Below, piece after piece: positions 1 through 59,015 of a DNA stretch of 64,000 nt (the first letter of the stretch is position 1; the number at the start of each line of letters is the position of its first letter). The notes under the pieces were generated by a model. The model saw only the letters and a list, made by a program, of their open reading frames with translations, was not told the origin of the DNA and did no database searches. Source of the stretch: Alphaproteobacteria bacterium (lineage in GTDB: Bacteria > Pseudomonadota > Alphaproteobacteria > UBA7985); the NCBI GenBank assembly GCA_965228345.1, contig CBDDHH010000004.1, positions 663,133 through 727,132 of the forward strand. The letters run 5' to 3'. Both the position numbers and the translations under genes were made by a program.

Positions 1-143
1 CATAGACGAGATAAGCTGAGACTTAAGCGTGCCTGTGGAAGACTGCGGGTCTGCCAATCCTCCCTTACATCGTGGGCAGATCGCCGAGGGCGCGCTGAGC
101 CGCGTGTCTTTCAAGCCAACGCTTTTTGTTAAGGGACCCGCCG
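1..143 (+). promoter_or_regulatory. Putative rplJ (L10) leader / 5' UTR region upstream of rplJ
   Basis: Non-coding stretch directly upstream of the L10 gene with an AAGGGA Shine-Dalgarno-like motif before the ATG at 144. L10 leaders are commonly autoregulatory. No structure was verified. Confidence 0.25.
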
Positions 144-659
144 ATGGATCGCATTCAAAAAGAGGAAATGGTTGCCGAGTTGAAGCATGTTTTCGACAGC
201 GTCGAAATCGTCATCGTTTCCAAACAAACAGGCCTAAGCGTTACCCAGTCCCAAGCTCTGCGTCAAAAAATGCGGGCCGAGGGGGCAACGCTGAAGGTCG
301 TCAAAAATCGGCTCGTTAAAATTGCAGCACAGGAGACGTCCAAGGCGGGTCTGTCAGACTTGATGACTGGCCCGACGGCAATTTCCTACGCTGATGACCC
401 CGTGGCGCCGGCGAAGGTGCTGGCGGACTTTGCCAAAGAGAGCGACAAGATCGAAATCTTGGGCGCGGTCATGGGGGACAAGGTCTTGTCCGCCGCGGAA
501 GTGGGGGCCTTGGCAAAGCTACCCTCGCTCGATCAACTCCGGGGCAAACTCATCGGCTTGGTCCAGGCACCCGCGACCAACGTCGCTGGGGTGGTGCAAG
601 CGCCCGCCGCGCAACTTGCCCGTATTTTTGCGGCCTACGCGGCTAAAGACGCCGCCTAA
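144..659 (+). CDS. rplJ: 50S ribosomal protein L10
   Basis: Translation MDRIQKEEMVAELKHVFDSVEIVIVS...KLPSLDQLRGKLIGLVQAP is typical of L10. The ATG at 144 is preferred over the table's TTG at 126. The gene immediately precedes rplL. Confidence 0.9.
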   Translation: MDRIQKEEMVAELKHVFDSVEIVIVSKQTGLSVTQSQALRQKMRAEGATLKVVKNRLVKIAAQETSKAGLSDLMTGPTAISYADDPVAPAKVLADFAKESDKIEILGAVMGDKVLSAAEVGALAKLPSLDQLRGKLIGLVQAPATNVAGVVQAPAAQLARIFAAYAAKDAA

Positions 660-707
660 TTTTAACGATTCACACATCTACCACGATCACACATGAGGAA
701 CTAGAAA

Positions 708-1088
708 ATGGCTGATCTCGATAAACTTGTAAAAGACTTAAGCACCTTGACGGTTTTGGAAGCCGCCGAACTGGCAACCAAGCTGGAAGAAGAGTGGGGC
801 GTTTCCGCTGCTGCGCCCGCGGCCGTTGCGGTCGCCGCGCCCGCTGACGGCGGGGGTGCCGTTGCCGAAGCCCAGACCGAATTTGACGTTGTCTTGGCCT
901 CCGTCGGGGGCAACAAGATTGCGGTCATTAAAGAGGTCCGCAGCGTCGTCGATGGCCTGGGCTTGAAAGAAGCCAAAGAGTTGGTCGATTCTGCGCCCAA
1001 GGCGATCAAAGAAGGCGTTTCAGAGGCCGAAGCCAACGAAATTAAAGAGAAGTTGGAAGCTGCGGGCGCTTCGATCGAAATCAAGTAA
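708..1088 (+). CDS. rplL: 50S ribosomal protein L7/L12
   Basis: [33 protein letters not shown]...Ala-rich hinge...[40 protein letters not shown] is the canonical L7/L12 architecture. A GAGGAA Shine-Dalgarno precedes it. Its TAA stop overlaps the TA at the MITE boundary. Confidence 0.95.
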
Positions 1089-1286
1089 TACCAACGGCAA
1101 AAAAAGTTGACACGTTTTTTGCCGTTTTATGTCTCGCGGCAGAAACGCTTCGCGTTTCGCCTCCGATGGGGCCTTCGCTTATGCCCCGAGGCGCGTGTCC
1201 GCTGTTCTCGGGCCGCTACGGGGGCCGCAGTCGCGCGGCCCTTATACCAGCGAACATAGGAGTCATTCTCAGTCGCCGCTGGTATA
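1088..1286 (+). mobile_element. MITE copy R1 (IS630-related multi-hairpin element)
   Basis: Left TIR ATACCAACGGCAAAAAAAGTTGACAC and right TIR region ...CGCCGCTGGTATA. Internal hairpins GGCAGAAACGCTTCGCGTTTCGCC and GGGGCCGCAGTCGCGCGGCCC. Sits on the rplL stop codon. Confidence 0.8.
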
Positions 1287-1516
1287 AGCACGCGCGCTTA
1301 GGAATTTATGATTTGGAAGAGGCCGTTTTCGGCCGTAGAGTCCGCGTGTTTTTTGGCACGAGTCGTCTTGTTGATGGGGTGTCCCTTGTGGGGTGACGTT
1401 CTTCCGCGCGGAATCCATCGCGGGTTGGAGACGGTGGAGACCACCTCGTCAGGCTTTGACCTGCCGCCCGTTTAGAGAAGGAAAACGGGAGTTTCATACC
1501 AGTTTTCCTTGAGAAT

Positions 1517-1777
1517 GACTCTTTATGAACTGGTATAATACCAGCGGCGATTTAAAATGACTCTTTTATTCGCTGGTATAAGGGCCGCGACTGCGGCCCC
1601 CGTAGCGGGCTCCAAGCCCGAAGGGCGCAGGGAACGCCAGCGCCAAAAACAAGCGGCCCCGAGATGAGCTAAGAAAGCGCCTCGGGGTATAAGCGAAGGG
1701 GCGGCGAAACGCGAAGCGTTTCTGCCGTGAGACATAAAACGGCTAAAAAAGTGTCAACTTTTTTCGCCGTTGGTATA
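1517..1777 (-). mobile_element. MITE copy R2 (inverted orientation, partial terminal-hairpin duplication)
   Basis: Near-identical to copy R7 (31507..31746). Ends ...TTTTTTCGCCGTTGGTATA. Contains the same GGCGAAACGCGAAGCGTTTCTGCC hairpin. Confidence 0.8.
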
Positions 1778-2002
1778 AGGTGTCGGGGGCGCTTTGTCTC
1801 ATTCCCGAAACGAGTCTGCGATCATGCCAAAGGGCGTTTCACAATTTCGCGCTTCGTGAACCTTGCGCAGGTGTGCGCTCACGAATTTTTCTGAGCCTTT
1901 GGCGAAAGACGCCGCGCCGGGCGCTGGCCCCGCTTGGGTTCCGGAGGCAAAGTGGGGGGCGTCGCAAGTTCGCGGTGCCCTTCAATCTATAGGAGACATG
2001 AC

Positions 2003-2434
2003 ATGTACAAAGCAGCCTTCACTCTTATTTCATCTCTTGCCTTAACTGTCGGTGTGGCCTGGGCCGATACCTTGCAGGTCAAAGTTACGATCCCAGAAGG
2101 CGATCGCAAGCTCGGTGCACTCAGGGTGGGTGTTTTCAAGTCGCAAGCACAATTTGATACTGGAGAGCCCGAGCTTGGGCTGATGCAAGAAGCGGTTCAT
2201 GGCGAAAACACGATCGCGATCGCGGATCTGCCTGCGGGCACTTACGGGCTTTCGGTGTTTCTTGATCGCAACGACGATGAGGAACTGAATAGTGGCCTAT
2301 TTGGCGCGCCCAGCGAGCCTTACGGATTTTCGCGCAACCCCACCATTCGCTTTTCCGCCCCCAAGTTCGATGACTGGAGCTTCCAATATGGTGGAAGCGG
2401 CGGCGAATTGGTTGTCGATTTGCTCGGGATCTAG
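2003..2434 (+). CDS. DUF2141 family secreted protein (signal peptide)
   Basis: AGGAGA Shine-Dalgarno 6 nt upstream of the ATG at 2003. N-terminal signal peptide MYKAAFTLISSLALTVGVAWA. Conserved GAPSEPYGFSRNP...PKFDD core resembles DUF2141. Confidence 0.6.
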   Translation: MYKAAFTLISSLALTVGVAWADTLQVKVTIPEGDRKLGALRVGVFKSQAQFDTGEPELGLMQEAVHGENTIAIADLPAGTYGLSVFLDRNDDEELNSGLFGAPSEPYGFSRNPTIRFSAPKFDDWSFQYGGSGGELVVDLLGI

Positions 2435-2436
2435 TC

Positions 2437-3969
2437 GTGGATCGCCGGACTCTATTGAAAGGCGCGGCGGCAGGAACGCTCGCCGCGCCCGCACTGTCGC
2501 TGCCACTGTGTGCCCAATCGACCCCCGAACAAGCGCGGTTCGATGCCTTTGCTGACGCCTTGGAGGCCAAGCCCTGGCTGCGGGGGTTTGTTGGCGCGCA
2601 GGTGTTGCAAACCCAGACCGCCATGGAAACGGTCCATGGGCAGATGCCGGAGGGTTTGCAAGGGGCCTTATTTCGCAACGGCCCTGCCTACCATGACATA
2701 GGCGGGGAGCGGTTCGGTCACTGGTTCGATGCTCCAGGCATGGTGCAGAAGTACACGATCGGGGCGAACGGAGTGCAGCACAAGGGACGCCTGATCGAAA
2801 CCGCGCGCAATCGCCGTGAATTGACGCAGCAGCGCATGCTCTTTGAGGCCTTTGGTACCAAACGCACCGACCTAGGCTCGGGCGGGTCGGCCGATGGCCA
2901 AAATGTTGGCAACATCAGCATCTTGCACCATGCAGGGGAACTGATGGCTACGTGGGAAGGGGGGTCGGCCCATGTGCTCGATTCCGAAACGCTGGAAACC
3001 GTGGGTCGCAAAGACTGGTCACTCGAGACGACGGGCGCGCCGTTCAGCGCCCATACACGCCATGACCCAGATGGGAATCTCTGGTCGATCGGCTATTCGA
3101 TTGCACCCGCCGGGCTGCTACTCTACCACATCGACGCTGCTGGCGCGCTGCAGCAGGTACGGGCGATCCCGTTCGATGCCGCGCCCATGATCCACGATTT
3201 TGTGGTGACGGCGACCAAGCTGGTGGTGCTGGTGCCACCCTTGCAGGTCGATCACCTCGACGAGGAAGCCAGCATTCTCGGCCTCTATTCCTGGCACGGA
3301 GATCAGCCGACGCGGGCTTTGATATTTGACAAGGCCGACCTGAGCCTCACGCAGGAAATTGAGCTCGACCCCTTTTGGGTATTTCACTTCGGCAATGGCT
3401 ACGATAGCGGTCCCGACGAGATCACCCTGGACCTGACCTTGCACGAAACGCCTGACTTTATGCTGGATACTGCATTCGCAATGATGGATGGGTCTTGGGA
3501 CGGCCACGTTTCGACCGAGGTTGTTTACACCCAGATTCGTCTGAATTTGCGCACGGGCCGAAGCCAGATTGAGACCGTTCCCGAGTTGCAAACGGCAGAA
3601 TTTTTGAAGATCGACCCCCGCGCGAGTCTAGGTGACCATCGCCACACCCTCATGCTAACACTGCGGCAGGCGGAGCGAGACGCCGCCGCGCCGCCGTGGT
3701 TTGGCCAGCTTGCACTCTACGATCGCCATAGGGAACGCCTCCAAACCTATCGAGCCGCTGATACGGAGATGATGGAGGAGCATGTCATGGTTCCCAAGGC
3801 TTCCGGCGGGGACGGCGTTTGGCTCCTGGGCAGCAGTCAAGACTGGGCCGAAGGGGCTACCTACCTGTCTGTTTACGATGGCGCCGCCCTCGCAGCGGGC
3901 CCTGTCTATCGTGCGCGCCTGGAGGGGACTCTGCCGCTAGGACTGCACGGGCACTTTGTCTCGGGTTAG
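2437..3969 (+). CDS. Carotenoid cleavage oxygenase family protein (RPE65/lignostilbene dioxygenase-like) with Tat signal
   Basis: GTG start. Twin-arginine motif RRTLLKGAAAGTLAAPA. His-containing motifs FDAPGMV / HHAG / FHFGNGY / HGHF typical of carotenoid oxygenases. ~510 aa. Confidence 0.8.
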   Translation: MDRRTLLKGAAAGTLAAPALSLPLCAQSTPEQARFDAFADALEAKPWLRGFVGAQVLQTQTAMETVHGQMPEGLQGALFRNGPAYHDIGGERFGHWFDAPGMVQKYTIGANGVQHKGRLIETARNRRELTQQRMLFEAFGTKRTDLGSGGSADGQNVGNISILHHAGELMATWEGGSAHVLDSETLETVGRKDWSLETTGAPFSAHTRHDPDGNLWSIGYSIAPAGLLLYHIDAAGALQQVRAIPFDAAPMIHDFVVTATKLVVLVPPLQVDHLDEEASILGLYSWHGDQPTRALIFDKADLSLTQEIELDPFWVFHFGNGYDSGPDEITLDLTLHETPDFMLDTAFAMMDGSWDGHVSTEVVYTQIRLNLRTGRSQIETVPELQTAEFLKIDPRASLGDHRHTLMLTLRQAERDAAAPPWFGQLALYDRHRERLQTYRAADTEMMEEHVMVPKASGGDGVWLLGSSQDWAEGATYLSVYDGAALAAGPVYRARLEGTLPLGLHGHFVSG

Positions 3970-3976
3970 GGGTCTA

Positions 3977-4168
3977 ATACCAACGGTCATAAAAAGTGAC
4001 CTTTTCATGTCCGTTTCGTGTCTCACGGCAGAAACGCTTCGCGTTTCGCCGCCCCTTCGCTGATACCCCGAGGCGCTTTCTTAGCTCATCTCGGGGCCGC
4101 TACGGGGGCCGCAGTCGCGGCCCTTATACCAGCGAATAAATGAGTCATTTTAAATCGCCGCTGGTATA
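3977..4168 (+). mobile_element. MITE copy R3
   Basis: TAATACCAACGGTCATAAAAAGTGACC left end, ...TAAATCGCCGCTGGTATAAG right end, same internal hairpins. Confidence 0.8.
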
Positions 4169-4519
4169 AGAACGCATCTCGGGGACATAAGCGGAGACTT
4201 CGTCCTGCGGTCGGGCTGAGCACGCAATTGTTAACATGCTAACAATCTCGTTACAAACTTGTGCAATTTGTAGTTTTAAAATGGGACGAGAACTTGTAAA
4301 GTAACGAAGATCGCGGATGGCAGACAACAGGAGGTTGTTCGCACTGCGGTGCGGGAAGTGAACAGTGGATTTTCGAGCGGGAGGCAAGGGTCGGACGACC
4401 TCAGTTTTGCTCGGTCCCTGGCTTGCGACGCCTAGTCGCACAACGCAACGTGCCGTCCGAGGTTTATGGAAACGCGCTTTTGGCATCAATAAGGCGTGAA
4501 TATCTTTGGGAGATTTAGA

Positions 4520-4924
4520 ATGAAACGAAACAGTCGCTTATTCCTGGCCCTGCATACTCTCAGTCATATGGCTGGAGACCCCGATCGGGTGCGCACCTCA
4601 AGTGCCATCGCCGCACACGCAGGCACCAATCCCGTAGTTGTGCGCCGCGTGCTTGGGAAGTTGCGTCATGCTGGTATGCTGGTATCAGAGAAAGGCCATT
4701 CTGGCGGCTGGCGATTGGCCAAGGAGCCCGAAGAGATTAGCCTAGCTGATGTCTATGAGGCCTTGGGCGAGCGATTGGTAGTGGGCAACGACAACGAGCA
4801 TGACGACGTGGACTGCGCCGTGGAGCACGCTGTCCACCAACGTCTTGTTGACGTTCTTAAGACAGCAGAGAAGAACCTGGTTGAAAGCCTTTCCAAGACA
4901 CGCATTTCAGAAGTTCCTGCCTAA
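4520..4924 (+). CDS. Rrf2 family transcriptional regulator
   Basis: MKRNSRLFLALHTLSHMAG...SSAIAAHAGTNPVVVRRVLGKLRHAGMLVSEKGHSGGWRLA matches the Rrf2 winged-helix N-terminus. Lies in lower-GC DNA. Confidence 0.75.
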   Translation: MKRNSRLFLALHTLSHMAGDPDRVRTSSAIAAHAGTNPVVVRRVLGKLRHAGMLVSEKGHSGGWRLAKEPEEISLADVYEALGERLVVGNDNEHDDVDCAVEHAVHQRLVDVLKTAEKNLVESLSKTRISEVPA

Positions 4925-5018
4925 GGCCAATAGACCCGCTTCACGATAAACTGAAAAAGGGCTTTTGCATGCAAACAAGGTCTTGTCGAAGTCAGGTTTG
5001 GCTGATTCTAGCCTTTTT

Positions 5019-5873
5019 ATGAGAACCTTCAAAATCCTTAAGAAGCAACCGCGCCTGTTTTTCCGCTTAAGTGGGATAAGGGTCAGCGATTTTGACGACA
5101 TTGCAGAGAAGATTTTGCCGCTTTGGGAGGCTCACAACCATCAGCGTCTATCTCGCCCCCATCGCCAACGCGCGATTGGGGGCGGGCCAAGCCATAAGCT
5201 AAGCTTTGAGGAGATGCTGCTTTTATGCCTGATCTATTATCGGACTTACATCAATCATGAGTTTCTGGGTTTGATATTTTCGGTTTCAGATAGCACGAGC
5301 ATCCGAACCGCCAATACAATGACCAAGCTATTGGCAGGCCATTTTCAGATGCCCGAGCGCAGGCTTGCTTTAAGTGAGGATGATAAGGAGCAGCTCATAT
5401 ATCTGATTGTCGATGGGACCGAGCGCCCCTGTCAGCGCCCCAAGAAATCGAAGGGCCGAAAGAAGATCTACTCGGGGAAAAAGAAGCGCTTTACTCATAA
5501 GCATCAAATTGTCGTCGATGATAAGAAGCGCATTCGTGCTTGTGGCCCCGTTCACCCTGGGCGCAAGCACGACAAAACCCTTTATGATCAAAGCCATCTG
5601 GACAAGCCACCAGATACCCTGCTCTTGGGCGACTTAGCTTATGTAGGAACCAACTGCGAAGTCCCGATAAAGAAATCCAAGAACCAAAATCTAAGCCAAG
5701 AACAAAAAGACTACAATAAGTGGTTCAGCTCTATGCGCGTGAAGGTTGAGCATGGCATTGGACGCATGAAAAAGTTCAACATTTTCTCTGACATCTCCAG
5801 AGGAAACCGACATGAGAACATGATTGCTAAGAATGTCGCGGCTCTGGCAAACATCAATTTAAAAATTTGCTGA
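5019..5873 (+). CDS. DDE_Tnp_4 (Harbinger/PIF-like, IS5-related) transposase
   Basis: LLCLIYYRTY...YLIVDGTERPCQRP...KHQIVVDDKKRIRACGPVHPGRKHDKTLYD...LLGDLAYVG...VEHGIGRMKKFNIFSD pattern of DDE_Tnp_4 transposases. Low-GC context. Start uncertain. Confidence 0.65.
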   Translation: MRTFKILKKQPRLFFRLSGIRVSDFDDIAEKILPLWEAHNHQRLSRPHRQRAIGGGPSHKLSFEEMLLLCLIYYRTYINHEFLGLIFSVSDSTSIRTANTMTKLLAGHFQMPERRLALSEDDKEQLIYLIVDGTERPCQRPKKSKGRKKIYSGKKKRFTHKHQIVVDDKKRIRACGPVHPGRKHDKTLYDQSHLDKPPDTLLLGDLAYVGTNCEVPIKKSKNQNLSQEQKDYNKWFSSMRVKVEHGIGRMKKFNIFSDISRGNRHENMIAKNVAALANINLKIC

Positions 5874-6268
5874 GATAAGCACTAAGGGACAAGTCCGTCT
5901 GTGCTCTTTCTCCCTATTGCGAATCAGGTCTAGTTTTTCCAAAGAATCGATCACCTGGCCAGGACAGCGCGGATCCTCAAGGCGACCTACCAGCCACGAG
6001 ATGATGTCCGAACGGCCCAGCAGCTCGCGCTGCACAAGGGCACCCCCATCTCCGCCAAGATGCTCGGTCCGGCTCTCCACGGAAAGATTCCGGTTGAATG
6101 ATGTCGTGAATAGAGATAGTGATCCACCCATGGCGTGGCTCGGTCCTAGCGGTCGTTTCTTGTTCTAGAACCCTGATTCTAAAGCCTTTCCCGCGTCACG
6201 CCATACAAATCATCCGATCAACCGTGAATAGGACGGGATCACAGTAATTTTTTTGGAGGAAGTCAGAC

Positions 6269-12442: not shown

Positions 12443-13307
12443 GACCAAGCCCCAGCGACTCGCCAAGTGGATCGCGCAGTCGGGCCTCTGTTCCCGCCGC
12501 GTTGCAGAGGATTGGATTTTGGGGGGGCGGGTCTCGCTCGACGGGCGACCAACCCTGGAGCCTGCGCAAAACGTCGACACAGCTGCGCGCATTCGCGTTG
12601 ATGGAGCCGCCCTGCCCGACCCGCAGGCGATCCGCCTGTTTCGCCTGCACAAGCCGCGCGGCCTATTGGTGGCAGAACGTGATCCCCAGGGGCGGGCGAC
12701 TGTTTTTGAGGCCTTGCCCAAATCCTTGCCTCGCCTCCACGCGGTCGGACGTCTCGACCTCAATTCCGAAGGGTTATTGCTGCTGACCACCGATGGCGCG
12801 TTTAAGCGGCGCCTCGAACTGCCCGAAACGGGTTTGCCGCGCACTTATCGCGTGCGCGCCTTCGGGCGCTTGGGGCCACGCGAGGTGCGCCTCATGGCCC
12901 AAGGCCTTACGATCGACGGGCAAGTCTATGGTCCCATTGAGGCGAGGATCGAACCGCGCCCTGGCAAGCCCGAGCCGCCGCCCTACGCGGCCGCCAACCA
13001 TTGGCTGCGCATGACCCTGCACGAGGGTAAAAATCGCGAAATCAGAAAGGTCTTGGCGCACTTTGGCCTGCAGGTTTCGCGCTTGATCCGGGTTTCCTAC
13101 GGTCCCATTTCGCTCGGCAGCCTTAAGACAGGTGAAGTTCGGGAGGTAGGAAAGAAGGAACTGCAGACAGCTTTCGACCTAGGCCCACGGCCCCAAACGG
13201 GCTGGGCCAGAGCCAAACCGCGGCCTAATCGTCCTGGTCAACGCCGCCCCAAGCCATCTGCGAATCGACCAGGACCCGGGCGCACCAACCACAGCCGTGG
13301 CCGCTAA
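12435..13307 (+). CDS. rluB: 23S rRNA pseudouridine synthase, RluB/RsuA family (S4 domain + catalytic domain, basic C-terminal tail)
   Basis: QRLAKWIAQSGLCSRRVAEDWILGGRVSLDG (S4) and HAVGRLDLNSEGLLLLTTDG (PseudoU_synth_2 catalytic Asp motif). Arg/Pro-rich tail. Confidence 0.8.
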   Translation: MTETKPQRLAKWIAQSGLCSRRVAEDWILGGRVSLDGRPTLEPAQNVDTAARIRVDGAALPDPQAIRLFRLHKPRGLLVAERDPQGRATVFEALPKSLPRLHAVGRLDLNSEGLLLLTTDGAFKRRLELPETGLPRTYRVRAFGRLGPREVRLMAQGLTIDGQVYGPIEARIEPRPGKPEPPPYAAANHWLRMTLHEGKNREIRKVLAHFGLQVSRLIRVSYGPISLGSLKTGEVREVGKKELQTAFDLGPRPQTGWARAKPRPNRPGQRRPKPSANRPGPGRTNHSRGR

Positions 13308-13911
13308 ACCGGGGTTCGTCACCCTACGCGCAGGAACCTTCGGCGGCAAACGCCTGCCAATCCCTGCCGACGGGTCTGTGCGCCCGACCACCGACCGCGC
13401 GCGCGCCCAGGCCTTTGATTTGCTCGACCGACACTTCCGCTTTGTAGATGGCCGCGGCCGCTGGTCCACGGCGCACGTTCTCGACGCCTTTGCCGGCACG
13501 GGCGCGCTGGGGTTCGAAGCGCTTAGCCGCGGCGCTAAAACGCTGACCCTTTGGGAGATCAACCCGCGTCAAGCCGCTGCGCTTGCCCAAACCGCCCGCA
13601 GCTTCAAGACTCGGCGGGTGCATGTCAGGGAACAAGATGCTCTCAACGCCCCCGTGCCCGCCACCGCCGCAGATCTGGTGTTTTTGGACCCCCCCTACGG
13701 GCGCGCCTTGGTCGGCCGTGCCCTTGAAGTCTTGGTTCGACAGGGATGGATTTCGGGCCATACCGTGATCTATGCGGAAACCGAAGCCACGGCGCGCCAA
13801 CCAGACGGCTATGAAGTGTTGACCGAACGTACCACCGGAAAGTCGGTAGTTCGGATTCTTATGCGGGCGGTAGCGCCGAAGACTCTCTATACCAGCGGCG
13901 ATTTAAAATGA
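13297..13911 (+). CDS. rsmD: 16S rRNA (guanine966-N2)-methyltransferase RsmD
   Basis: LDAFAGTGALGFEALSRGA (SAM-binding) and VFLDPPY motifs. The last ~7 codons (…TLYTSGDLK*) are supplied by the MITE R4 terminus. Confidence 0.8.
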   Translation: MAAKPGFVTLRAGTFGGKRLPIPADGSVRPTTDRARAQAFDLLDRHFRFVDGRGRWSTAHVLDAFAGTGALGFEALSRGAKTLTLWEINPRQAAALAQTARSFKTRRVHVREQDALNAPVPATAADLVFLDPPYGRALVGRALEVLVRQGWISGHTVIYAETEATARQPDGYEVLTERTTGKSVVRILMRAVAPKTLYTSGDLK

Positions 13912-14086
13912 CTCTTTTATTCGCTGGTATAAGGGCCGCGACTGCGGCCCCCGTAGCGGCCCCGAGATCGGCGCGAAAGCGCCTCGGGGTATAAGCGAAG
14001 GCCCCGTCGGAGGCGAAACGCATCGCGTTTCTGCCGTGAGACACGAAACGGCCATGAGAAGGTCACTTTTTATGACCGTTGGTATA
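13889..14086 (-). mobile_element. MITE copy R4
   Basis: CTATACCAGCGGCGATTTAAAATGACTC...GACCGTTGGTATAAG. Overlaps the rsmD 3' end. Confidence 0.8.
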
Positions 14087-27661: not shown

Positions 27662-27887
27662 ATACCAACTCCGCTAAAAATTGACATTTTTAGCGGAGTT
27701 TTGTCTCACGGCAGAAACGCGTTGCGTTTCGGCTTTTGGGGTTGCGGTCTCACCTCGCTCGCTCAGCCCGACCGCGCCTTCGCTTATACCCCGAGGCGCT
27801 TTCTTAGCTCATCTCGGGGCCGCTACGGGGCCGCAGTCGCGGCCCTATACCAGTTCATAAAGAGTCTGTTTTAAGGAGAACTGGTAT
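27662..27887 (+). mobile_element. MITE copy R5 (variant with CTCGCTCGCTCAGCC segment and alternate terminal hairpin)
   Basis: CTTATACCAACTCCGCTAAAAATTGACATTTTTAGCGGAG...ATACCAGTTCATAAAGAGTCTGTTTTAAGGAGAACTGGTATTAG. Confidence 0.75.
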
Positions 27888-31000: not shown

Positions 31001-31160
31001 ATACCAGTTTTTATAAATGGTGACCCATTCATGAAGATTTTTGATGTCACGGCAGAAACGCTTCGCGTTTCGCCTCCCCTTCGCTTATGCCACGAGGCAC
31101 TTTCTTAGCTATTCTCGGGGCTGCTACGGGGGCCGCAGTCGCGGCCCTTATACCAGCGGC
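31001..31160 (+). mobile_element. MITE copy R6 (variant left end ATACCAGTTTTTATAAATGGTGACCC), merging into the IS630-family left terminus
   Basis: Shares the GGCAGAAACGCTTCGCGTTTCGCC and GGGGGCCGCAGTCGCGGCCC hairpins. Its right end is the TTATACCAGCGGCGG sequence that also begins the adjacent IS630 remnant. Confidence 0.65.
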
Positions 31161-31460
31161 GGTAGCTTTTGACTCGTAGAAGTGTTTTTTCAACTAGGTC
31201 GTATTGTGATTCGTATTTCCCGCAAACAGGAGATACCTATGGCCATAGCAATCACACGCGCAAACCATAGCGCTAAGGATTTAAGAAAGTTTGCAGCGCG
31301 GAGTAAGGATCCCAAAGTTTCGCGCCGGGTACTAGCCATAGCGATGCTTATTGAGGGTAGTTCTTGTAAGTTTGCCGGTGAATGCTACGGCATGGATCGC
31401 CAAACACTTTGTGATTGGGTTCATCGTTACAATCTCGAACAGCCCTCTGCATAAGGAAGG
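31150..31460 (+). mobile_element. IS630-family IS remnant: left TIR + truncated transposase N-terminus (HTH)
   Basis: ORF 31239..31454 MAIAITRANHSAKDLRKFAARSKDPKVSRRVLAIAMLIEGSSCKFAGECYGMDRQTLCDWVHRYNLEQ matches IS630-family N-terminal HTH regions. Preceded by ATACCAGCGGCGGTAGCTTTTGACTC, which resembles the MITE TIR. Confidence 0.65.
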
Positions 31461-31506: not shown

Positions 31507-31746
31507 GAGACCAGCGGCGATTTAAAATGACTCTTTTATTCGCTGGTATAAGGGCCGCGACTGCGGCCCCCGTAGCGGGCTCCAAGCCCGAAGGGCGTAG
31601 GGAACGCCTGCGCCAAAAACAAGCGGCCCCGAGATGAGCTAAGAAAGCGCCTCGGGGTATAAGCGAAGGGGCGGCGAAACGCGAAGCGTTTCTGCCGTGA
31701 GACATAAAACGGCTGAAAAAGTGTCAACTTTTTTCGCCGTTGGTAT
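31507..31746 (-). mobile_element. MITE copy R7
   Basis: Near-identical to R2. ...GTGTCAACTTTTTTCGCCGTTGGTAT terminus. Truncates the IS630 remnant. Confidence 0.8.
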
Positions 31747-31839
31747 TGGTTTTTTGTTTCTTGACCCAAGAATGCTCTTGCCTTCGACACACTTTTGCCG
31801 TCGGTACTTTAGGTGTTCGAGATTTTGGTGGAGGACTGG

Positions 31840-34608: not shown

Positions 34609-35526
34609 ATGAATAGATCATCTTTGCCGTGGCATCTGCTACAGAGTTTTTTGTCCTGCCTCGATCAGGGATCGCTGAGCGCGGCGGCGGCGCGCCTCAA
34701 GCTGAGCCAACCCACCCTTTCCCGGCACATTCGCGAGCTGGAAACCTTAATCCAGGGGCGTCTTTTCGTCCGGTCCCGCCAGGGTCTTCAGTTGACCACC
34801 CTGGGGCTAGAATTGGTTGAACCTGCGCGCGCCATGGCCGACGCTGCGGCCCAGATCAGCGCCCGACTGTCGGGAGCGGGGGCGGAGACAAGGGCGAGCG
34901 TACGCCTTACCGCCAGCCAGTACATGGCGACATTCTGGTTGCCCGAGATTCTCGTGGCCTTCCAGGCGCGTCACCCGCACATCCAGATCGAGCTGGTCGC
35001 CAACGATCAGACGCACAATCTGCTGCGGCGCGAGGCCGACATCGCGGTGCGCATGTTCCGGCCGACCCAAGATAGCCTGATCACACGGCACCTAGGCCAC
35101 ATCGATCTGTGCATGTTGACGACGCGCGCCTATTTGGCGACGCGCACGCCGCCGCAAACGCCCGAGGACTTGCGCGCCCATCGCCTGATTGGCGACGATC
35201 AACGCACCCTCATTATCGACGGCTTACGCGCCTATGGGTTGCGCTTTGGGCCCGAAGACTTTGCCTTACGTTGCGACGACCAAGTGACGGCGTTGCATTT
35301 GATCGCCGCAGGTGGGGGCATCGGTTTTGGCCAAGCGCGCCTTGCCGAGCGGTTTCCTAGCCTGATCGCCTTGCCCATCGGCGACGGCGCGCCGAAATTA
35401 CCGCTTTGGCTGACCGCCCACGAAGACTTGCGCAGCAATCGTGCCGTGCGGCTGCTCTATGACTTCTTGGCTGAGCAACTGGTTCAGGTGGTGATACCAG
35501 TTCTGCTTAACAAAGACTCCTTATGA
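34609..35526 (+). CDS. LysR family transcriptional regulator
   Basis: N-terminal HTH (LSCLDQGSLSAAAARLKLSQPTLSRHIRELE) plus LysR substrate-binding domain. Divergent from the oxidoreductase. Last ~10 codons are encoded by the MITE R8 terminus. Confidence 0.85.
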   Translation: MNRSSLPWHLLQSFLSCLDQGSLSAAAARLKLSQPTLSRHIRELETLIQGRLFVRSRQGLQLTTLGLELVEPARAMADAAAQISARLSGAGAETRASVRLTASQYMATFWLPEILVAFQARHPHIQIELVANDQTHNLLRREADIAVRMFRPTQDSLITRHLGHIDLCMLTTRAYLATRTPPQTPEDLRAHRLIGDDQRTLIIDGLRAYGLRFGPEDFALRCDDQVTALHLIAAGGGIGFGQARLAERFPSLIALPIGDGAPKLPLWLTAHEDLRSNRAVRLLYDFLAEQLVQVVIPVLLNKDSL

Positions 35527-35687
35527 ACTGGTGTAGGGCCGCGACTGCGGCCCCCGCAGCGGCCCCGAGACAAGCTAAGAAAGCGCCTCGGGGTATCAGC
35601 CAAGGCCCCGTCGGAGGCGAAACGCGAAGCGTTTCTGCCGTGAGACATAAAACGGCTGAAAATGTCAATTTTTAGCGGAGTTGGTAT
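35494..35687 (-). mobile_element. MITE copy R8
   Basis: ATACCAGTTCTGCTTAACAAAGACTCCTTATGAACTGGTGTAGGGCCGCGACTGCGG...GGAGTTGGTATTAG. Overlaps the LysR 3' end. Confidence 0.8.
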
Positions 35688-35689
35688 TA

Positions 35690-36302
35690 GGGTCCGTGGA
35701 CATTAGGGATTCCCATTTCTGCAAACTTGTGTTTCAAGCTTCCAAAACGGAGGTTTCAATGAACACAGATCGCTTTGTTGTCACAGATCAACTCTGGGAT
35801 AGGATTTCAGGGTTGATTCCAGGCCGCGATGGGGTTCGCGGTGTTACTGGAGAAGATAATCGTCTCTTCTTGGAGGCTGTGCTTTGGCGGGTGCGTGCAG
35901 GGCTCCCTTGGCGAGACTTGCCGCCAGAATTTGGCAAGTGGAATACTCAATTTCGCCGTTTCCGTCGATGGGCCGCAGCAGGTGTTTTTGAGAGACTTTT
36001 TGAAGCTCTAAACCAAGACCCCGACGTTGAATACGCTCTTATCGACGGCACTATGTTAAGCGTTCACCAGAAAGCCAGTGGCGCAAAAGGGGGGCTCAAA
36101 ATCAGTCCATTGGACGTTCAAGAGGTGGATTGACGACCAAGATCGTTGCCTTGGTTGAGGGCTTAGGGAACCTGGCCCGCTTCCTTCTGTTGCCTGGTCA
36201 AGCCCATGATATGCAAGGGGTCAAGCCACTCATAGAGGGCGTCTGTTTTGATGCTCTATTGGCTGACAAGGCTTTCGATGCAGACTGGCTTCTCGAAGAC
36301 TT
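35690..36302 (+). mobile_element. IS5-family (IS427-group) element, 3'-truncated: orfA (35759..36133) and N-terminal part of frameshifted orfB (36130..36300)
   Basis: orfA MNTDRFVVTDQLWDRISGLIPGRDGVRGVTGEDNRLFLEAVLWRVRAGLPWRDLPPEFGKWNTQFRRFRRWAAAGVFERLF (DUF4096-type). orfB fragment ...LARFLLLPGQAHDMQGVKPLIEG...ADKAFDADWL. The 5' ~200 bp is near-identical to the 54827.. copy. Truncated by MITE R9. Confidence 0.75.
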
Positions 36303-36493
36303 ATACCAACGGCGAAAAAAGCTGACACTTTTTCAGCCGTTTTATGTCTCACGGCAGAAACGCTTCGCGTTTCGCCGCCCCTTCGCTGATACCCCGAGGC
36401 GCTTTCTTAGCTCATCTCGGGGCCGCTACGGGGGCCGCAGTCGCGACCCTTATACCAGCGAATAAAAGAGTCATTTTAAATCGCCGCTGGTAT
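36303..36493 (+). mobile_element. MITE copy R9 (inserted into or abutting the IS427-like element)
   Basis: CTTATACCAACGGCGAAAAAAGCTGACAC...AAATCGCCGCTGGTATTATG. Confidence 0.8.
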
Positions 36494-40152: not shown

Positions 40153-40215
40153 ATCGCGGTCCCTTTTTCAAACTTTGGACTCCACGATTGCAGAAGTGTC
40201 GCCCAAGAAAGGCAA

Positions 40216-42654
40216 GTGACTATGGCCGAACTCCCCTCGCACGCGCGTGTTGTTATTATCGGCGGCGGCATTATGGGCTGCGGCGTGGCCTATCATCTGG
40301 CGCATGAGGGTTGGACAGACCTGGTCTTGTTGGAAAAGGCCGAACTGACCTCGGGGTCCACTTGGCACGCGGCGGGGCAAATCACCCATTCCACCTCCTC
40401 CTACACCCTTGGGGCCTGCGTCGGATACAACATCGACCTCTATCGCACGGTTTTGGAACAAGAGACGGGCCAATCCTGCACGTGGCACGGCTGCGGTTCG
40501 CTGCGGCTTGCCTATACATCGGACGAGGTGGATTGGCTGCTGCAAACTCTTTCGGTGGGGCGCGCGCTTGGGTTTCCTATGGAACTGCTGACGCCCGCGC
40601 AAATTCGCGACCAGCATCCGTTCTATAAACTCGACGGGGTTTTGGCGGCGCTCCATACCCCCGACGACGGCCACGTCGATCCTGCGGGTCCTGCCTTTGC
40701 GCTCGAGAAGGGCGCGCGCCAACTGGGAACCAAAACGATCAAGCGCTGTTTGGCCGAGGCTGTTACGCAGCTGCAGTCGGGGGAGTGGCAAGTCACGACC
40801 AACAAAGGCACGATTCGGTGTGAGCATGTGGTCAACGCGGGCGGCACCTATGCGCGGCAAGTCGCCCTGACCTCGGGCTACGATCTGCCCGCCACCTCCA
40901 TGACCCACCACTATTTGGTGACCGACGCGGTGCCCGAGTTCCAGGATTTGCCCCGCGAATTGCCCGTAGTGCGCGATGATCGGCAGGTGTCGGGCTACAT
41001 AAGGATGGAGCAAAAATCGGGTCTGATCGGCATTTACGAAAAGACCAACCCCAATACAGTTTGGCAGGATTGGTGCCCGTGGGAAGCGGAAAACGAACTG
41101 TTCGAGGCTGACTACGACCGTATCATGCCTTGGCTGGAAAACGCCCTGGACCGCATGCCCGTTTTTGCCGACCTGGGCATCAAGCGCGAGGTCCACGGCG
41201 CCATCTCGCACCCGCCCGACGGCAATCCCCTGATCGGGCCGGCGCCAGGCCTGCAAAATTACTGGGTCAATGCCGGCTGCCAAATCGGGATTGGCTGGGG
41301 GCCAGGCCTCACGCGGGAACTGGCGCGCTGGATGGTCCACGGCGCGGCGGACCTGAACATGCGCGATTTTGACCCCCGCCGCTACGGCGCGTTTGCCGAT
41401 CGAACCTACCAGATCGAAAAAGCCAAGGAGGACTACGTTCTCCGTCACGAAATCCCCTTCCCCCATTTCAATCGCCATGCCCATCGCCCCGTCAAACCTT
41501 CGCCCCTCTACGAAGTTTTGAAGGCCAAAGGCGCGGTCTTCGAAGAAGTCTATGGCTGGGAACGCCCACGCTGGTTCGCCAAAAACGGCGTCGCTCAAGA
41601 GGATCACTACAGTTTCGGCCGCGCGCCATGGTTCGACTTGGTCATGGCGGAGGTCAAGGCCGTGCGCAAGGCGGTGGGCGTGATCGATATCTCTGCCTTC
41701 GCCAAGATTGAAGTTTCGGGCCCAGGGGCCTTGGCGCTGATCGACCGTCTGATTCCCAACCGCGTGCCCAGAGTGGGCCGGGTCGGCCTGACCCACATGC
41801 TCGGGAATTCGGGCCGAATTGAATTGGAAACAACGTTGGTGACCCTGGCTGAGGATCGCTTTTACCTCGTTTGCGCGGCCTTCTTTGAGCAACGCTTGCT
41901 CGACCATCTGACCAAGTATGCGAGCGGCGAAGACGTGACCATCGCCAACCTATCGGAAGCCTACGGCGCCTTGGCGCTGTCGGGCCCACGCGCGCGGGAT
42001 GTTTTAGGGCAAGTGACCGACCACAGCTTGGTCGCGCCCGCGTTCAAATGGCTGGACGCCAAGGAAATTCGCATCGCAGGCCAAAGGTGCTGGGCTTTGC
42101 GCCTGTCGTACGCTGGGGAATTGGGCTGGGAGCTCCATGTCCCCCGCGACGGCTTGGTCGCGGTCTATCACGCTCTTTCGCAAGCGGGCACCGCCCACGG
42201 ACTGACCGACTACGGATCCTTTGCCATGAACATCTTGCGCATGGAAAAAATGTTCAAGGGCTCGGGTGAGTTGACCAACGAAGTGACCCTGCCCGAGGCC
42301 GATGTCATGCGGTTTGTGAAGATGGATAAGGAAGCCTGGGTCGGCCGCGCGGCGACGGACGCGGCCCTGCGCGCACCGTTGCGCTATGTTTGTGTCTATT
42401 TGGAAATTGACAGCAATGGCAAGGCGGACGGCAACGGCGGCGAAACCGTCCTGATGGCGGGTCAAGCCGTGGGGTCGGTCTCCTCCATCGTCTATTCCCC
42501 AACCCTCGATAAGGGGCTCGCTTTTGCCTATGTAAGTCCCGAGGCCGCGCGCACGGGCCAAAGGCTGGAGGTCGTGATTATGAACGACCCGCGCCCTGCC
42601 GTCGTGCGCGATCAGCCTGCCTACGATCCCGCCAGCGAACTGCCACGCGCATGA
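40216..42654 (+). CDS. Dimethylglycine/sarcosine dehydrogenase-family protein (FAD-dependent oxidoreductase fused to GcvT-like folate-binding domain)
   Basis: VVIIGGGIMGCGVAYHLA FAD motif. ~812 aa, as expected for DMGDH-type enzymes. C-terminal aminomethyltransferase-like domain. Confidence 0.8.
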   Translation: MTMAELPSHARVVIIGGGIMGCGVAYHLAHEGWTDLVLLEKAELTSGSTWHAAGQITHSTSSYTLGACVGYNIDLYRTVLEQETGQSCTWHGCGSLRLAYTSDEVDWLLQTLSVGRALGFPMELLTPAQIRDQHPFYKLDGVLAALHTPDDGHVDPAGPAFALEKGARQLGTKTIKRCLAEAVTQLQSGEWQVTTNKGTIRCEHVVNAGGTYARQVALTSGYDLPATSMTHHYLVTDAVPEFQDLPRELPVVRDDRQVSGYIRMEQKSGLIGIYEKTNPNTVWQDWCPWEAENELFEADYDRIMPWLENALDRMPVFADLGIKREVHGAISHPPDGNPLIGPAPGLQNYWVNAGCQIGIGWGPGLTRELARWMVHGAADLNMRDFDPRRYGAFADRTYQIEKAKEDYVLRHEIPFPHFNRHAHRPVKPSPLYEVLKAKGAVFEEVYGWERPRWFAKNGVAQEDHYSFGRAPWFDLVMAEVKAVRKAVGVIDISAFAKIEVSGPGALALIDRLIPNRVPRVGRVGLTHMLGNSGRIELETTLVTLAEDRFYLVCAAFFEQRLLDHLTKYASGEDVTIANLSEAYGALALSGPRARDVLGQVTDHSLVAPAFKWLDAKEIRIAGQRCWALRLSYAGELGWELHVPRDGLVAVYHALSQAGTAHGLTDYGSFAMNILRMEKMFKGSGELTNEVTLPEADVMRFVKMDKEAWVGRAATDAALRAPLRYVCVYLEIDSNGKADGNGGETVLMAGQAVGSVSSIVYSPTLDKGLAFAYVSPEAARTGQRLEVVIMNDPRPAVVRDQPAYDPASELPRA

Positions 42655-44040: not shown

Positions 44041-44238
44041 ATACCAACGGTCATAAAAAGTGACCTTTTCATGACCGTTTCGTGTCTCACGGCAGAAACG
44101 CTTCGCGTTTCGCCTCCGACGGGGGCCTTCGCTTATACCCCGAGGCGCTTTCGCGCCATTCTCGGGGCCGCTACGTGGGCCGCAGTCGCGGCCCTCATAC
44201 CAGCGATCATAAGAGTCATTTATAATTGCCGCTGGTAT
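44041..44238 (+). mobile_element. MITE copy R10
   Basis: ATACCAACGGTCATAAAAAGTGACC...ATTGCCGCTGGTATTAG. Its terminal TTA forms the folD stop codon on the opposite strand. Confidence 0.8.
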
Positions 44239-45098
44239 TAGAATGTCCACCCCAGTTCAACCTGACGGCGATGGGCCTTGAGCGCGTTTTGCATGAGCAT
44301 AGAGACCGTGACAGGGCCGACTCCGCCGGGGACGGGCGTGACCCAAGAAGCCATGTCCAGCGCCTCGTCCATCTTCACATCCCCGACAAGGCCGTCAGCG
44401 GTCTGGTTGATGCCAACGTCGATGACGGCGGCGCCGGGCTTGATCATGTCCCCGCCGATCAGCCCAGCCTTTCCCACCGCGACCACGAGGGCATCGGCAC
44501 GGCGGGAATGCGACGCAACAGATCGGGTCATATGGTGACAGACCGTCACCGTCGCGCCTTCCGCCACGAGCATGAGGGCGACGGGCTTGCCGACAATTTC
44601 TGAATGACCGATCATCACAACCTCCAACCCCTTCAGGGTCAGGCCCGTGGACTTGAGCAGTTCGACCGACGCCGCCGCCGTGCAGGGCAGCAGCGCATGG
44701 TCCCCATAAACGATATTGCCGATTGAGGCTGGGTTCATTCCCTCGACGTCTTTGAGGGGGTGAATCGCGCCTTGCAAGGTACGAGGGTTTAAGTGCGCAG
44801 GTACGGGACGCTGTAAAATAATACCTGTGACTTTTGGGTCATCGTTCATCGCCACCAGGCGCGCCTTGGCCTGATCCTGGCTGATATGACCGTTCCAATA
44901 CTGTTCGTCGAACGGAATGCCCACACGCTCGGCCAAGCGGCGCTGGTTACGAATATAAACTTTCACCTCCTCCACCGCACCAATAGCGATGGAACAGAGC
45001 TTCCCGATTGGGGGCAGCGCCACCAAGTCCGCTTGAACTTGTGACATAAGGCGGTCGCGCAGCGGGGCACCGCGCAGCAGTCGAGGGTCATGATCCAT
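44238..45098 (-). CDS. folD: Bifunctional methylenetetrahydrofolate dehydrogenase/methenyltetrahydrofolate cyclohydrolase
   Basis: ...IILQRPVPAHL...VVMIGHSEIVGKPVALML...VIDVGINQ...PVPGGVGPVTVSML are conserved FolD blocks. Confidence 0.85.
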   Translation of the reverse strand: MDHDPRLLRGAPLRDRLMSQVQADLVALPPIGKLCSIAIGAVEEVKVYIRNQRRLAERVGIPFDEQYWNGHISQDQAKARLVAMNDDPKVTGIILQRPVPAHLNPRTLQGAIHPLKDVEGMNPASIGNIVYGDHALLPCTAAASVELLKSTGLTLKGLEVVMIGHSEIVGKPVALMLVAEGATVTVCHHMTRSVASHSRRADALVVAVGKAGLIGGDMIKPGAAVIDVGINQTADGLVGDVKMDEALDMASWVTPVPGGVGPVTVSMLMQNALKAHRRQVELGWTF

Positions 45099-45109
45099 AG
45101 GAGCTTCTT

Positions 45110-45348
45110 ATACCAACGGCGAAAAAAGTTGACACTTTTTCAGCCGTTTTATGTCTCACGGCAGAAACGCTCCGCGTTTCGCCTCCCCTTCGCTGATACC
45201 CCGAGGTGCTTTCTTAGCTCATCTCGGGGCCGCGTGTTTTTGGCGCGGGCGTTCCCTGCGCCCTTTGGGCTTGGAGCCCGCTACGGGGGCCGCAGTCGCG
45301 GCCCTTATACCAGCGAATAAAAGAGTTATTTTAAATCGCCGCTGTTAT
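45110..45348 (+). mobile_element. MITE copy R11
   Basis: CTTATACCAACGGCGAAAAAAGTTGACAC...TTAAATCGCCGCTGTTATTAG, with an extra internal GC-rich hairpin. Confidence 0.8.
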
Positions 45349-45500
45349 TAGCGCAACTCTCAAGAAAGTTGACGCCTTTTGCGAACGTCCGCCGAGGCCA
45401 CGGGGAACCACGACTTGATGCCACAAGTATGGCCGCCGGACTCTGAACGTCCGCGCAACATAAGGATGACAGCGTCACGTTCCCAACCTAAACACACACT

Positions 45501-54826: not shown

Positions 54827-55065
54827 GGCTAGGGTTCGTGGACATTAGGAATTCCCATTTCTGCAAAATTGTGTTTCAAGCTTCCAAAACGGAGGTTTCA
54901 ATGAACACAGATCGCTTTGTTGTCACAGATCAACTCTGGGATAGGATTTCAGGGTTGATTCCAGGCCGCGATGGGGTTCGCGGTGTTACTGGAAAAGATA
55001 ATCGTCTCTTCTTGGAGGCTGTGCTTTGGCGGGTGCGTGCAGGGCTCCCTTGGCGAGACTTGCTG
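54827..55065 (+). mobile_element. IS427-like element 5' fragment (left end + orfA N-terminus 54901..55065), truncated by IS3 insertion
   Basis: Near-identical to 35690..35930 (GGGTYCGTGGACATTAGG...MNTDRFVVTDQLWDRISGLIPGRDGVRGVTG.DNRLFLEAVLWRVRAGLPWRDL). Confidence 0.75.
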
Positions 55066-56302: not shown

Positions 56303-56321
56303 AAGCGATTCCCCTGAAATG

Positions 56322-57233
56322 TTAGGCGGCTAGATCATAGCCATGTTTTTCTTTTAAGTATGTCTCCTCTTTTTGGCTAGGGGTTAGGTATCCGATGGAT
56401 GAGTGGATGCGTTTGGTGTTGTACCACTTGATCCACCTGGCGGTTTGCCACTCGACATCTGCTCTGGATTTCCAGGGGCCGATGCGCTCAACGACCTCTG
56501 TTTTGTACAGGCCGATGGTGCTTTCTGCGAGCGCGTTGTCGTAGCTGTCGCCCACGCTGCCCACCGACATATCAACGCCTGCCTCTTCTAGGCGTTCGCT
56601 GTATTTGAAGGACATGTATTGGCTGCCGCGATCACTATGGTGAATGGGCTTGATGCCATCTACCGATATGGGTCTGCGTTGATGCAGGGCCTGCTCCAGG
56701 GCGTCCAGCACGAAGGCCGTTGTCATAGAGGTGCTGACCTTCCACCCCACCATGCGCCGTGCAAACACGTCGATGACGAAGGCCACATAGACATCTCCCT
56801 ACCAGGTTTTGACGTAAGTGAAATCACAGACCCATAACTGGTTAGGGTAAGAGGCATGGAACGCCCTGTTCACCCGATCCTCTGGGCAGGGCAGTGCCTT
56901 ATCAGGATTGGTGGTGATGACGGGCTTTCCCCGCACCAGGCCTTGATAACCAGCCCTTTGCATCAATCGCTCTACCGTGCACTTGGCGATGGCATAGCCT
57001 TCAGACTTGAGCTGATGCCAAACCTTGCGGGTGCCATAAATGCCATCGCTCTCATCCTGATAGACGCGCTTGATCTCAGCAAGATCAGCCTCATCCTGAT
57101 TTGCCTTACGACTGCGCAGATCAGGGTTGCGCGCCATAGAAGCATGACGGCGATAGGTTGAGGGCGCGATGGACAAAACCTTCGCCATCGGCTCGGCACC
57201 GAACTCTTGGATATGATCGCTCATAAAGCTCAC
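56322..57233 (-). pseudogene. IS3-family transposase orfB with in-frame TAG replacing a conserved Trp codon
   Basis: Reading ...CDFTYVKTW*GDVYVAFVIDVFARRMVGW. IS3 consensus has W at this position (TGG->TAG). Otherwise an intact rve domain. Confidence 0.7.
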
Positions 57234-57565: not shown

Positions 57566-57613
57566 GGGTCTTCCTTAGAGAATTGGACCCGCCGATAAAC
57601 CCGGGACGGTTCA

Positions 57614-58924: not shown

Positions 58925-59015
58925 CAGACAAGTGTTGCTCCAGGCCACCCTTGGTATTGAGCTCACAAAACGTCCGACCCAAACATGGACACCGCCGCGA
59001 ACCGCCATGCGTCTT

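Follow-up and report, generated by a model that had tools for sequence, protein, structure and literature searches.

The rplKAJL-rpoBC cluster is among the most conserved gene clusters of bacteria, and the locus described here raises the question of how an rplJ-rplL pair came to stand without rpoB and rpoC behind it. The window (the whole stretch of DNA that we analysed, 64,000 nucleotides long) opens in the leader of rplJ, and an earlier note on it had claimed that rplJL is not followed by rpoBC and that a DUF2141/carotenoid oxygenase pair lies past the junction. Both observations were borne out, the latter by Pfam and the former by the lack of any ORF of the size of rpoB or rpoC. The products of these two genes are about 1400 aa each and, since the longest ORF of the window is one of 917 aa, neither gene is present anywhere in the 64 kb; in particular, rpoB is not found directly 3' of rplL on the same strand, where the canonical arrangement has it. 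The window does carry topA, dprA, pyrB, a gene for a dihydroorotase-like amidohydrolase, ruvX, gatA, rnr, folD, tgt and mnmG, and this chromosomal housekeeping content led us to reject the idea that it is a plasmid or an island. TRAP transporters are also encoded in it. We believe that the following explanation is very probably correct: rplJL is the ordinary single working copy, it was split from rpoBC by an old stepwise rearrangement that is common to the sister species, and the MITEs now seen in the junction came later.

The two genes are adjacent on the same strand with a spacer of 48 nt, the uL10 and bL12 domains are both present, and the lengths of the products equal those of all relatives, which shows that the genes are intact (Table 1). 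When they were compared with their counterparts in OZ245893.1, dN/dS was 0.028 for rplJ and 0.079 for rplL, with dS of 0.36-0.47, and both genes are thus under strong purifying selection. Among known proteins, the L10 of the window was 100% identical to P0001 and 97% identical to the protein of OZ245893.1. The pair is almost certainly the ordinary, single, working L10-L7/L12 operon of the lineage, its single-copy status being taken from the sister species OZ245893.1, for which a pattern-seeded scan of species representatives disclosed one rplJ locus.

Table 1. Features of the rplJL locus and its downstream region in the window; L008 denotes the corresponding locus of OZ245893.1.
Feature	Position	Strand	Remarks
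3' part of rplJ leader, truncated by the window start	1-143	+	aligns with about 220 nt 5' of rplJ in relatives
rplJ (uL10)	144-659	+	171 aa; PF00466, E 2.4e-25
rplL (bL12)	708-1088	+	126 aa; PF00542, E 9e-29; PF16320, E 8e-17
MITE1	1089-1287	+	196-nt body 1089-1284, TACCAACGG...CCGCTGGTA; second TAA 1285-1287; terminal inverted repeats, empty site
MITE1 left terminal hairpin	1093-1137	+	12-bp stem then UUUUAU, 5 nt past the rplL stop (fold of 1080-1370)
Remnant of ancestral rplL terminator region	1294-1363	+	1294-1334 matches L008:10953-10993
Solo 39-nt palindromic unit	1497-1535	-	equals the MITE right-end hairpin module (right ends of copies c27660 and c35494)
MITE2	1536-1778	-	237-nt body 1539-1775, TAA/TAA; 96-99% to copies 31508-31750 and 45107-45353
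Conserved upstream region (promoter/5'UTR) of DUF2141-RPE65 pair	1831-1998	+	84% identity, L008:11118-11288
DUF2141 gene	2003-2434	+	Pfam
RPE65-family carotenoid oxygenase gene	2437-3969	+	Pfam
Third MITE copy	3975-4169	+	body 3978-4166, TAA/TAA; 5 nt 3' of the RPE65 stop; absent from OZ245893.1

The spacer between rplL and the DUF2141 gene measures 915 nt in the window as against 346 nt in OZ245893.1, and it holds three insertions, namely MITE1, a solo 39-nt hairpin unit and MITE2. Two MITEs had been proposed before at 1088-1286 and 1517-1777; the repeats are real, but what had been taken for the second MITE is a solo unit (1497-1535) plus a MITE (1539-1775). MITE1 is flanked by TAA at 1086-1088, which is the stop codon of rplL, and by TAA at 1285-1287, and where it sits the relatives read ...AAG TAA gcgcaagc..., an empty site at the rplL terminator that is found both in OZ245893.1 and in a second contig, ctg44571. 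MITE2 contains a nested 48-nt REP-like module (1609-1656). The corresponding spacer of OZ245893.1 lacks MITE2 but has the module on its own, as a tandem pair (L008:10990-11091). The single-copy sequence that borders MITE2 on either side (1294-1334 and 1831-1998) is colinear with OZ245893.1, and a second solo unit is found at 58884-58923. These comparisons show that the MITEs were inserted after the split of the window species and that of OZ245893.1. As the same junction is free of MITEs in OZ245893.1, they are later insertions and not the cause of the separation, and the matching TAA/TAA flanks on each argue for simple insertions rather than recombinant elements. It should be kept in mind that repeats inside a broken junction need not be the cause of the break.

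The reference in these comparisons, OZ245893.1, is a MAG labelled 'Alphaproteobacteria bacterium' that consists of a 3.25-Mb chromosome-level long-read contig with 171x coverage. Its rplJ/rplL DNA is about 90% identical to that of the window, and the two genomes are those of sister species. In ctg44571, which comes from the same sample as OZ245893.1, the L10 is 96% identical to that of the window; this contig ends 60 nt past rplL. Further MAGs follow at 80%, 78% and 73% L10 identity, named Alphaproteobacteria reach at most 64%, and the lineage is uncultured and probably host-associated. A check of synteny in close relatives, proposed in the earlier note, disclosed the same rplL-DUF2141 junction in OZ245893.1, with rplJ-rplL-DUF2141-RPE65-Rrf2 in the same order as in the window.

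The position of rpoBC could be read from the same contig, whose RpoB (P0248) was reached via the RpoB of the 80% relative. In OZ245893.1, rpoB lies at 2,802,469-2,806,695, rpoC ends at 2,810,932 and rplJ starts at 2,825,124 on the same strand, which places rpoBC 14.2 kb upstream of rplJL. The interval is occupied by a DDE_3 fragment, two IS110 copies, a ParE toxin pair, mutL and genes for an AMIN-amidase, PBP1A and an aminotransferase. Likewise, in ctg44571 rpoBC is upstream of rplJL at a distance of 27.4 kb, with more IS copies in between. In OZ245893.1 as well as in two further contigs from this genus, what stands before rpoB is an aminotransferase gene and not rplJL. As to the window genome, its L10 and its probable RpoB (P0254) are both 97% identical to their OZ245893.1 counterparts, and P0254 is on a contig of 1.44 Mb whereas the P0001 L10 is on another of 965 kb, so that the spacing between rpoBC and rplJL may be larger than in the relatives or an assembly break may lie between them. 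On the strength of the relatives, we infer that rpoBC would stand just upstream of rplJL in this genome too.

The more distant members of the lineage display another arrangement. In the 80% relative, genes for Sua5, MTS, NMT1, M23 and an FAD-oxidase (the last on the opposite strand) precede rplJ-rplL-sulfatase-EamA (opposite strand)-rpoB-rpoC, and a PG-binding protein gene and epimerase genes lie past rpoC; the 73% relative reads rplJ-rplL-sulfatase-rpoB-rpoC. Both thus retain the canonical order, with only 2.5-3.0 kb between rplJL and the rpoBC that follows, which indicates that the genus of the window, with its reversed order and a distance of 14-27 kb, shows the derived state. A tblastn search with the 17 flanking genes of the 80% relative against the window and its close relatives matched only L10 and L12. 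Since no flanking gene is shared, all four boundaries have changed, which implies several rearrangements, and a simple one-step model could not be reconstructed. The 78% relative (L005) has an L10 that is 87% identical to that of the 80% relative and is thus nearer to it than to the window, and it has lost rpoBC from the neighbourhood of rplJL independently. Within 10 kb upstream of rplJ, rplA was found in none of 10 loci of the lineage.

From these arrangements a history in three steps emerges. In the wider uncultured lineage, rplKA had already been unlinked and a sulfatase gene, along with an EamA gene on the opposite strand, had invaded the spacer between rplL and rpoB; rpoBC would hence already have been expressed from a conserved leader of its own, about 140 nt long. 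Later, before the window genome and its sister species parted, further rearrangements in an IS-rich chromosome placed DUF2141-RPE65-Rrf2 behind rplL, and as their outcome rpoBC came to stand upstream of rplJL, in the same orientation and at a distance of 14-27 kb. After the species had split, a MITE family targeting TNA multiplied in the genome of the window. One copy hit the stop codon of rplL, regenerating TAA by target duplication, and the solo hairpin unit and a second MITE landed farther down the same spacer. The relatives document each of these steps, and we infer in addition that IS elements drove the second. Synteny between the window and OZ245893.1 stops directly after Rrf2, at an IS5-like element (gene region 4965-5873), and the window as a whole is heavily loaded: its 64 kb contain 14 MITE cores, six transposase genes or what is left of them, and one IS fragment besides. 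A DUF4096 IS starts at 35688. This load fits frequent IS-associated rearrangement, with no breakpoint tied to a particular IS.

The earlier note had left the choice between a duplicated copy of rplJL, a relocated one, and a separation of rpoBC mediated by the repeats, and it had named a misassembly at the MITE, or a lineage normally devoid of rplL-rpoB linkage, as ways in which the observation might lose its meaning. Relocation or separation as such is upheld, because rplL and rpoB are no longer neighbours as in the canonical cluster and the position of rplJL relative to rpoBC has changed. That the MITEs were responsible, either by recombination between copies or by their very insertion, has some points in its favour, since they are dense (14 cores in 64 kb), occur in both orientations and could in principle be substrates of recombination, and since two copies plus a solo unit stand exactly in the junction. 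However, OZ245893.1 has this junction without any MITE, and with dS of about 0.4-0.5 between the two genomes the insertions must postdate it; moreover, MITE1 and MITE2 each keep matching TAA duplications at their flanks. We therefore hold the claim of a repeat-mediated rearrangement to be highly improbable. To the same high degree we doubt that the pair is an extra copy, whether duplicated or horizontally acquired, with a canonical rplJL-rpoBC locus elsewhere. The window covers 64 kb of its genome, which leaves room for such a copy, but the closest species representative has one rplJ locus, an aminotransferase gene stands before rpoB there and in two more contigs from the genus, the selection on rplJL is strongly purifying (dN/dS 0.03-0.08), and L10 and RpoB are both 97% identical to OZ245893.1, with nearest homologues that all belong to the same lineage.

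The chance that assembly across a repeat produced a chimera here is close to negligible. Repeats of about 200-240 nt with more than 95% identity throughout would invite one, and ctg44571 does end 60 nt after rplL, but the unique sequence that flanks each of the two MITEs is colinear with the independently assembled 3.25-Mb, 171x contig, and this disposes of the suspected misassembly. There remains the view that the whole lineage never had an rplL-rpoB association, so that a fixed ancestral trait is being observed and nothing happened here. We consider it very unlikely. The claim that the lineage normally lacks the linkage is right in so far as a sulfatase gene (plus EamA) already lies between the pairs in the 73-80% relatives and no locus of the lineage has rplKA within 10 kb upstream, and it gains some colour from the many loci of Brevundimonas, Caulobacter and Phenylobacterium in which the linkage is loosened or lost; it does not stand in the strong form, however, because the same 73-80% relatives keep rplJL followed by rpoBC at 2.5-3.0 kb. 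An old stepwise rearrangement with later MITEs is thus the reading that we retain.

This reading is in line with the break-up of operon clusters described by Brandis (2021; PMC8046335), in which operons that stand in a row are first spaced out by the entry of a few genes between them and then fully disconnected by subsequent rearrangements, without distant horizontal transfer. Among the cases in that work is H. influenzae Rd, whose rpoBC operon lacks rplJL, the latter being located elsewhere. The two stages of the scheme were both found in the lineage: genes inserted in the spacer are present in the 80% and 73% relatives, and full disconnection over more than 10 kb is present at 14.2 and 27.4 kb with the order reversed, to which the independent loss in L005 can be added. 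The best homologues of L10 and RpoB are from MAGs of the same lineage with concordant identities, and at the level of the homologue search this speaks against a distant acquisition. The present case differs from those published in that it concerns an uncultured alphaproteobacterial lineage with a genome unusually rich in IS and MITEs, in that no duplication intermediate was seen, and in that rpoBC lies upstream of rplJL on the same strand and only 14-27 kb away in the close relatives. It adds a documented alphaproteobacterial example, with intermediates kept in relatives, to the short list of lineages in which rplJL and rpoBC are fully uncoupled, and we regard it as a new instance of a known process which opens no long-standing question.

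To see how common such arrangements are, we drew on 78 other alphaproteobacterial species-representative loci recovered with an L10 query, a sample biased by the search patterns. In 33 of the 78, rpoB was at most 800 nt from rplL; in 24, mostly from Brevundimonas but also from Caulobacter and Phenylobacterium, the distance was 0.8-7.4 kb; no rpoB was present within 9 kb or more in nine loci, and 12 were cut by contig ends. Even with this bias, the sample shows that the loss of tight rplL-rpoB linkage is not rare in the class; the reversed order is less common. In Caulobacterales (Brevundimonas, Caulobacter, Phenylobacterium), additional genes separate rplA from rplJ and rplL from rpoB (1.5-7.4 kb), and for Bradyrhizobium a preprint describes genes that intervene between rplKA and rplJL. 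Wherever both pairs are visible, however, the loosened loci of the survey keep the canonical order, whereas that of the window genus is reversed. For annotators, this means that expectations based on synteny fail in this lineage.

The new gene order has consequences for expression. In E. coli, rpoBC is co-transcribed from the rplJ and rplK promoters through an attenuator (bioRxiv 10.1101/2025.04.14.645983). The lineage resembles E. coli in having these four genes, in that rplJ and rplL are adjacent and have a leader and in that a hairpin and a T-run stand just before rpoB in the relatives; unlike E. coli, it has no rplKA upstream in any member examined and no rpoB next to rplL, so that co-transcription is impossible in this arrangement. 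The region of about 220 nt upstream of rplJ could be aligned as conserved in six of six lineage members, with blocks including GGGCAGATCGCC and ACGCTTTTT. Neither the Rfam L10_leader nor any other credible RNA family was found at E<=1 in positions 1-6000 of the window, which hold the last 143 nt of the leader, or in L008:9300-11400, and the exact leader motifs of the lineage were absent 5' of rplJ in 20 other alphaproteobacterial loci. About 140 nt upstream of rpoB are likewise conserved across the lineage, with the hairpin and T-run placed just before the ribosome-binding site. The conserved leaders of rplJ and rpoB indicate that each pair moved together with its own control region. Considering its leader and the intrinsic terminator that it has in the relatives, rplJL would be an independent transcription unit with its own promoter, rpoBC would have to use a promoter of its own, and the gene order of the close relatives would exclude an E. 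coli-style coupling of RNA-polymerase synthesis to read-through from the rplJ promoter. A scan for consensus promoters and terminators returned no promoter, and it also missed the evident rplL terminator of OZ245893.1, which we took from the sequence and an RNA fold.

In OZ245893.1, the stop codon of rplL runs directly into a clean intrinsic terminator, AGAAGAGGCCG-AUUU-CGGCCUCUUUUUUU in the fold. At the same place the window has a MITE on the TAA stop and a decayed ancestral terminator 30 nt downstream, with the stem cut to GGCCG/CGGCC and 14 nt between stem and T-run. The left terminal hairpin of MITE1 is terminator-like in its predicted fold and might act as one, and transcription of rplJL would end either at this hairpin or at the remnant of the old terminator. 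A bolder proposal, which we put forward as speculative and rather doubtful, is that the MITE family prefers sites on or just past stop codons in a GC-rich genome, that its terminal hairpin (a long stem plus a U-run) is co-opted as a terminator so that at rplL it is a mobile element which fixes where an essential operon for ribosomal proteins ends, and that the genus represents a natural intermediate series in the dismantling of the cluster.

The MITE family itself was characterized within the window. Its 27-nt core occurs 14 times in the 64 kb and never in shuffles, blastn disclosed about 15 copies or fragments, and the density is about one per 4.6 kb, with copies in both orientations. The elements are 196-244 nt in length and non-coding, their only ORFs being spurious frames of 41-76 aa, and they end in inverted repeats, TACCARCGG...CCGYTGGTA. 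These can pair along some 23 positions, with covariation between the variants at the two ends. Eight of the 12 full-length copies stand between perfect direct repeats of 3 bp with the form TNA (TAA, TTA, TCA), and insertion is polymorphic, the window carrying copies where relatives have empty sites; in OZ245893.1 the sole full copy within 43 kb is at L008:14265-14464, outside the rplL junction. No autonomous partner with TACCARCGG ends was found in the 64 kb and a few further loci, and a motif scan for a transposase bracketed by MITE ends was negative. The IS5-like element, the DUF4096 IS and the IS110 copies of the relatives were considered as partners and rejected, since their ends are unrelated. 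Two core patterns had no matches in JGI metagenome contigs, a full copy had none in PLSDB plasmids, and by this measure the family appears to be restricted to the genus.

Compared with bacterial MITEs such as the Correia elements of Neisseria, the family is likewise small, non-coding, rich in hairpins, present in many copies and found at gene ends, and terminal inverted repeats of about 25 bp with a short A/T-rich target duplication are common to both. It differs from the known ones in having no sequence match beyond the genus in JGI metagenome contigs or PLSDB plasmids and no matching autonomous partner in the window. We presume a likeness to IS5-family (IS1031-type) or PIF/Harbinger transposons, which duplicate TNA/TWA. 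In practical terms, a MITE that is as dense and genus-specific as this one will fragment short-read assemblies.

Six of the about 15 MITE copies in the window were found on, or a few nucleotides from, the 3' end of a gene. For two of them, the TNA target duplication is itself a stop codon, that of rplL (1086-1088) in copy 1089-1284 and that of folD (44238-44240, minus strand) in copy 44042-44237. Two others are 2-5 nt past stop codons (3969 and 30996), and the ORFs at 13297-13911 and 34609-35526 now run 7-10 codons into a MITE before they stop. These positions suggest that the family is biased toward stop codons or A/T-rich targets, in a genome of about 59% G+C.

Mobile-element features of the window
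Feature	Window coordinates	Remarks
MITE copies at gene 3' ends	1089-1284, 3978-4166, 13890-14084, 31002-31196, 35495-35686, 44042-44237	
IS5-like transposase gene (DDE_Tnp_4 and HTH_Tnp_4), then DDE_Tnp_1_4 IS fragment (5964-6230)	4965-6230	
IS5-family element with DUF4096 orfA	35688-36300, 36496 onward	starts at TA|GGGTCCGTGGACATTAGG

At rplL, the MITE hairpin now lies immediately 3' of the stop codon, and the terminator (1294-1363) is decayed, with a shorter stem and a 14-nt spacer ahead of the T-run, whereas the ancestral terminator is whole in both relatives that carry no MITE there, the sister-species chromosome OZ245893.1 (locus L008:10953-11000) and the related contig ctg44571. At 1609-1656 lies a distinct REP-like module, a palindrome about 48 nt long (GGCGTTCCCTGCGCCCTTCGGGCTTGGAGCC); it is free and in tandem 3' of rplL in OZ245893.1 (L008:10990-11091), and nested in the 237-244-nt MITE variants, including copies 31508-31750 and 45107-45353. 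In OZ245893.1 the rplJ leader is preceded by tandem repeats (about 60 nt, ggcggtctcacctcgctccctacgctcgctcagcc...; L008:9390-9560), and two of the window's MITE copies contain a related segment of 33 nt (27736-27770 and 61830-61880).

The IS5-like gene and the DDE_Tnp_1_4 fragment mark the end of synteny with OZ245893.1, and the fragment is 84% identical to an IS just 5' of the rplJ leader on ctg44571. The transposase region of the DUF4096 element appears to be split by a MITE copy (36304-36492, TTA/TTA flanks). The left end of this element (234 nt) occurs again at 54830-55063 with 98% identity, adjoining ISAs1-like, IS3 (rve), IS5 (DUF772) and IS256 (Mutator) transposase genes (55115-61131).

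Two long ORFs overlap on opposite strands, 40168-41907 (minus) and 40216-42654 (plus). Pfam support (DAO, FAO_M and GCV_T domains) was found only for the latter, predicted to be dimethylglycine/sarcosine-dehydrogenase-like; the minus-strand ORF, of 579 aa, is probably a shadow ORF.

In the three alphaproteobacterial sequences compared (L090:9860-10000, L092:9860-10000 and L006:13370-13511), a leader some 140 nt long is conserved ahead of rpoB and has been kept with that gene through the rearrangements. It presents a GC-rich hairpin and then a T-run just 5' of the ribosome-binding site, and is attenuator-like.

In L005 (ERZ28548099 contig_28957), a relative with 78% L10 identity, rplJL is also unlinked from rpoBC. 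Many genes around rplJL are split (RelA/SpoT, Mrp antiporter subunits, PALP and hydrolases), reflecting either a pseudogene-rich reduced genome or frameshift errors from long reads. Throughout Brevundimonas (L012 and others among loci L011-L070), rplA-rplJ and rplL-rpoB linkage is loosened: the former gap measures 2-6 kb and holds PhoU-like, PiT, NUDIX and other genes, and the latter spans 5-7 kb or more, its first gene encoding an M61-type peptidase and lying on the opposite strand.
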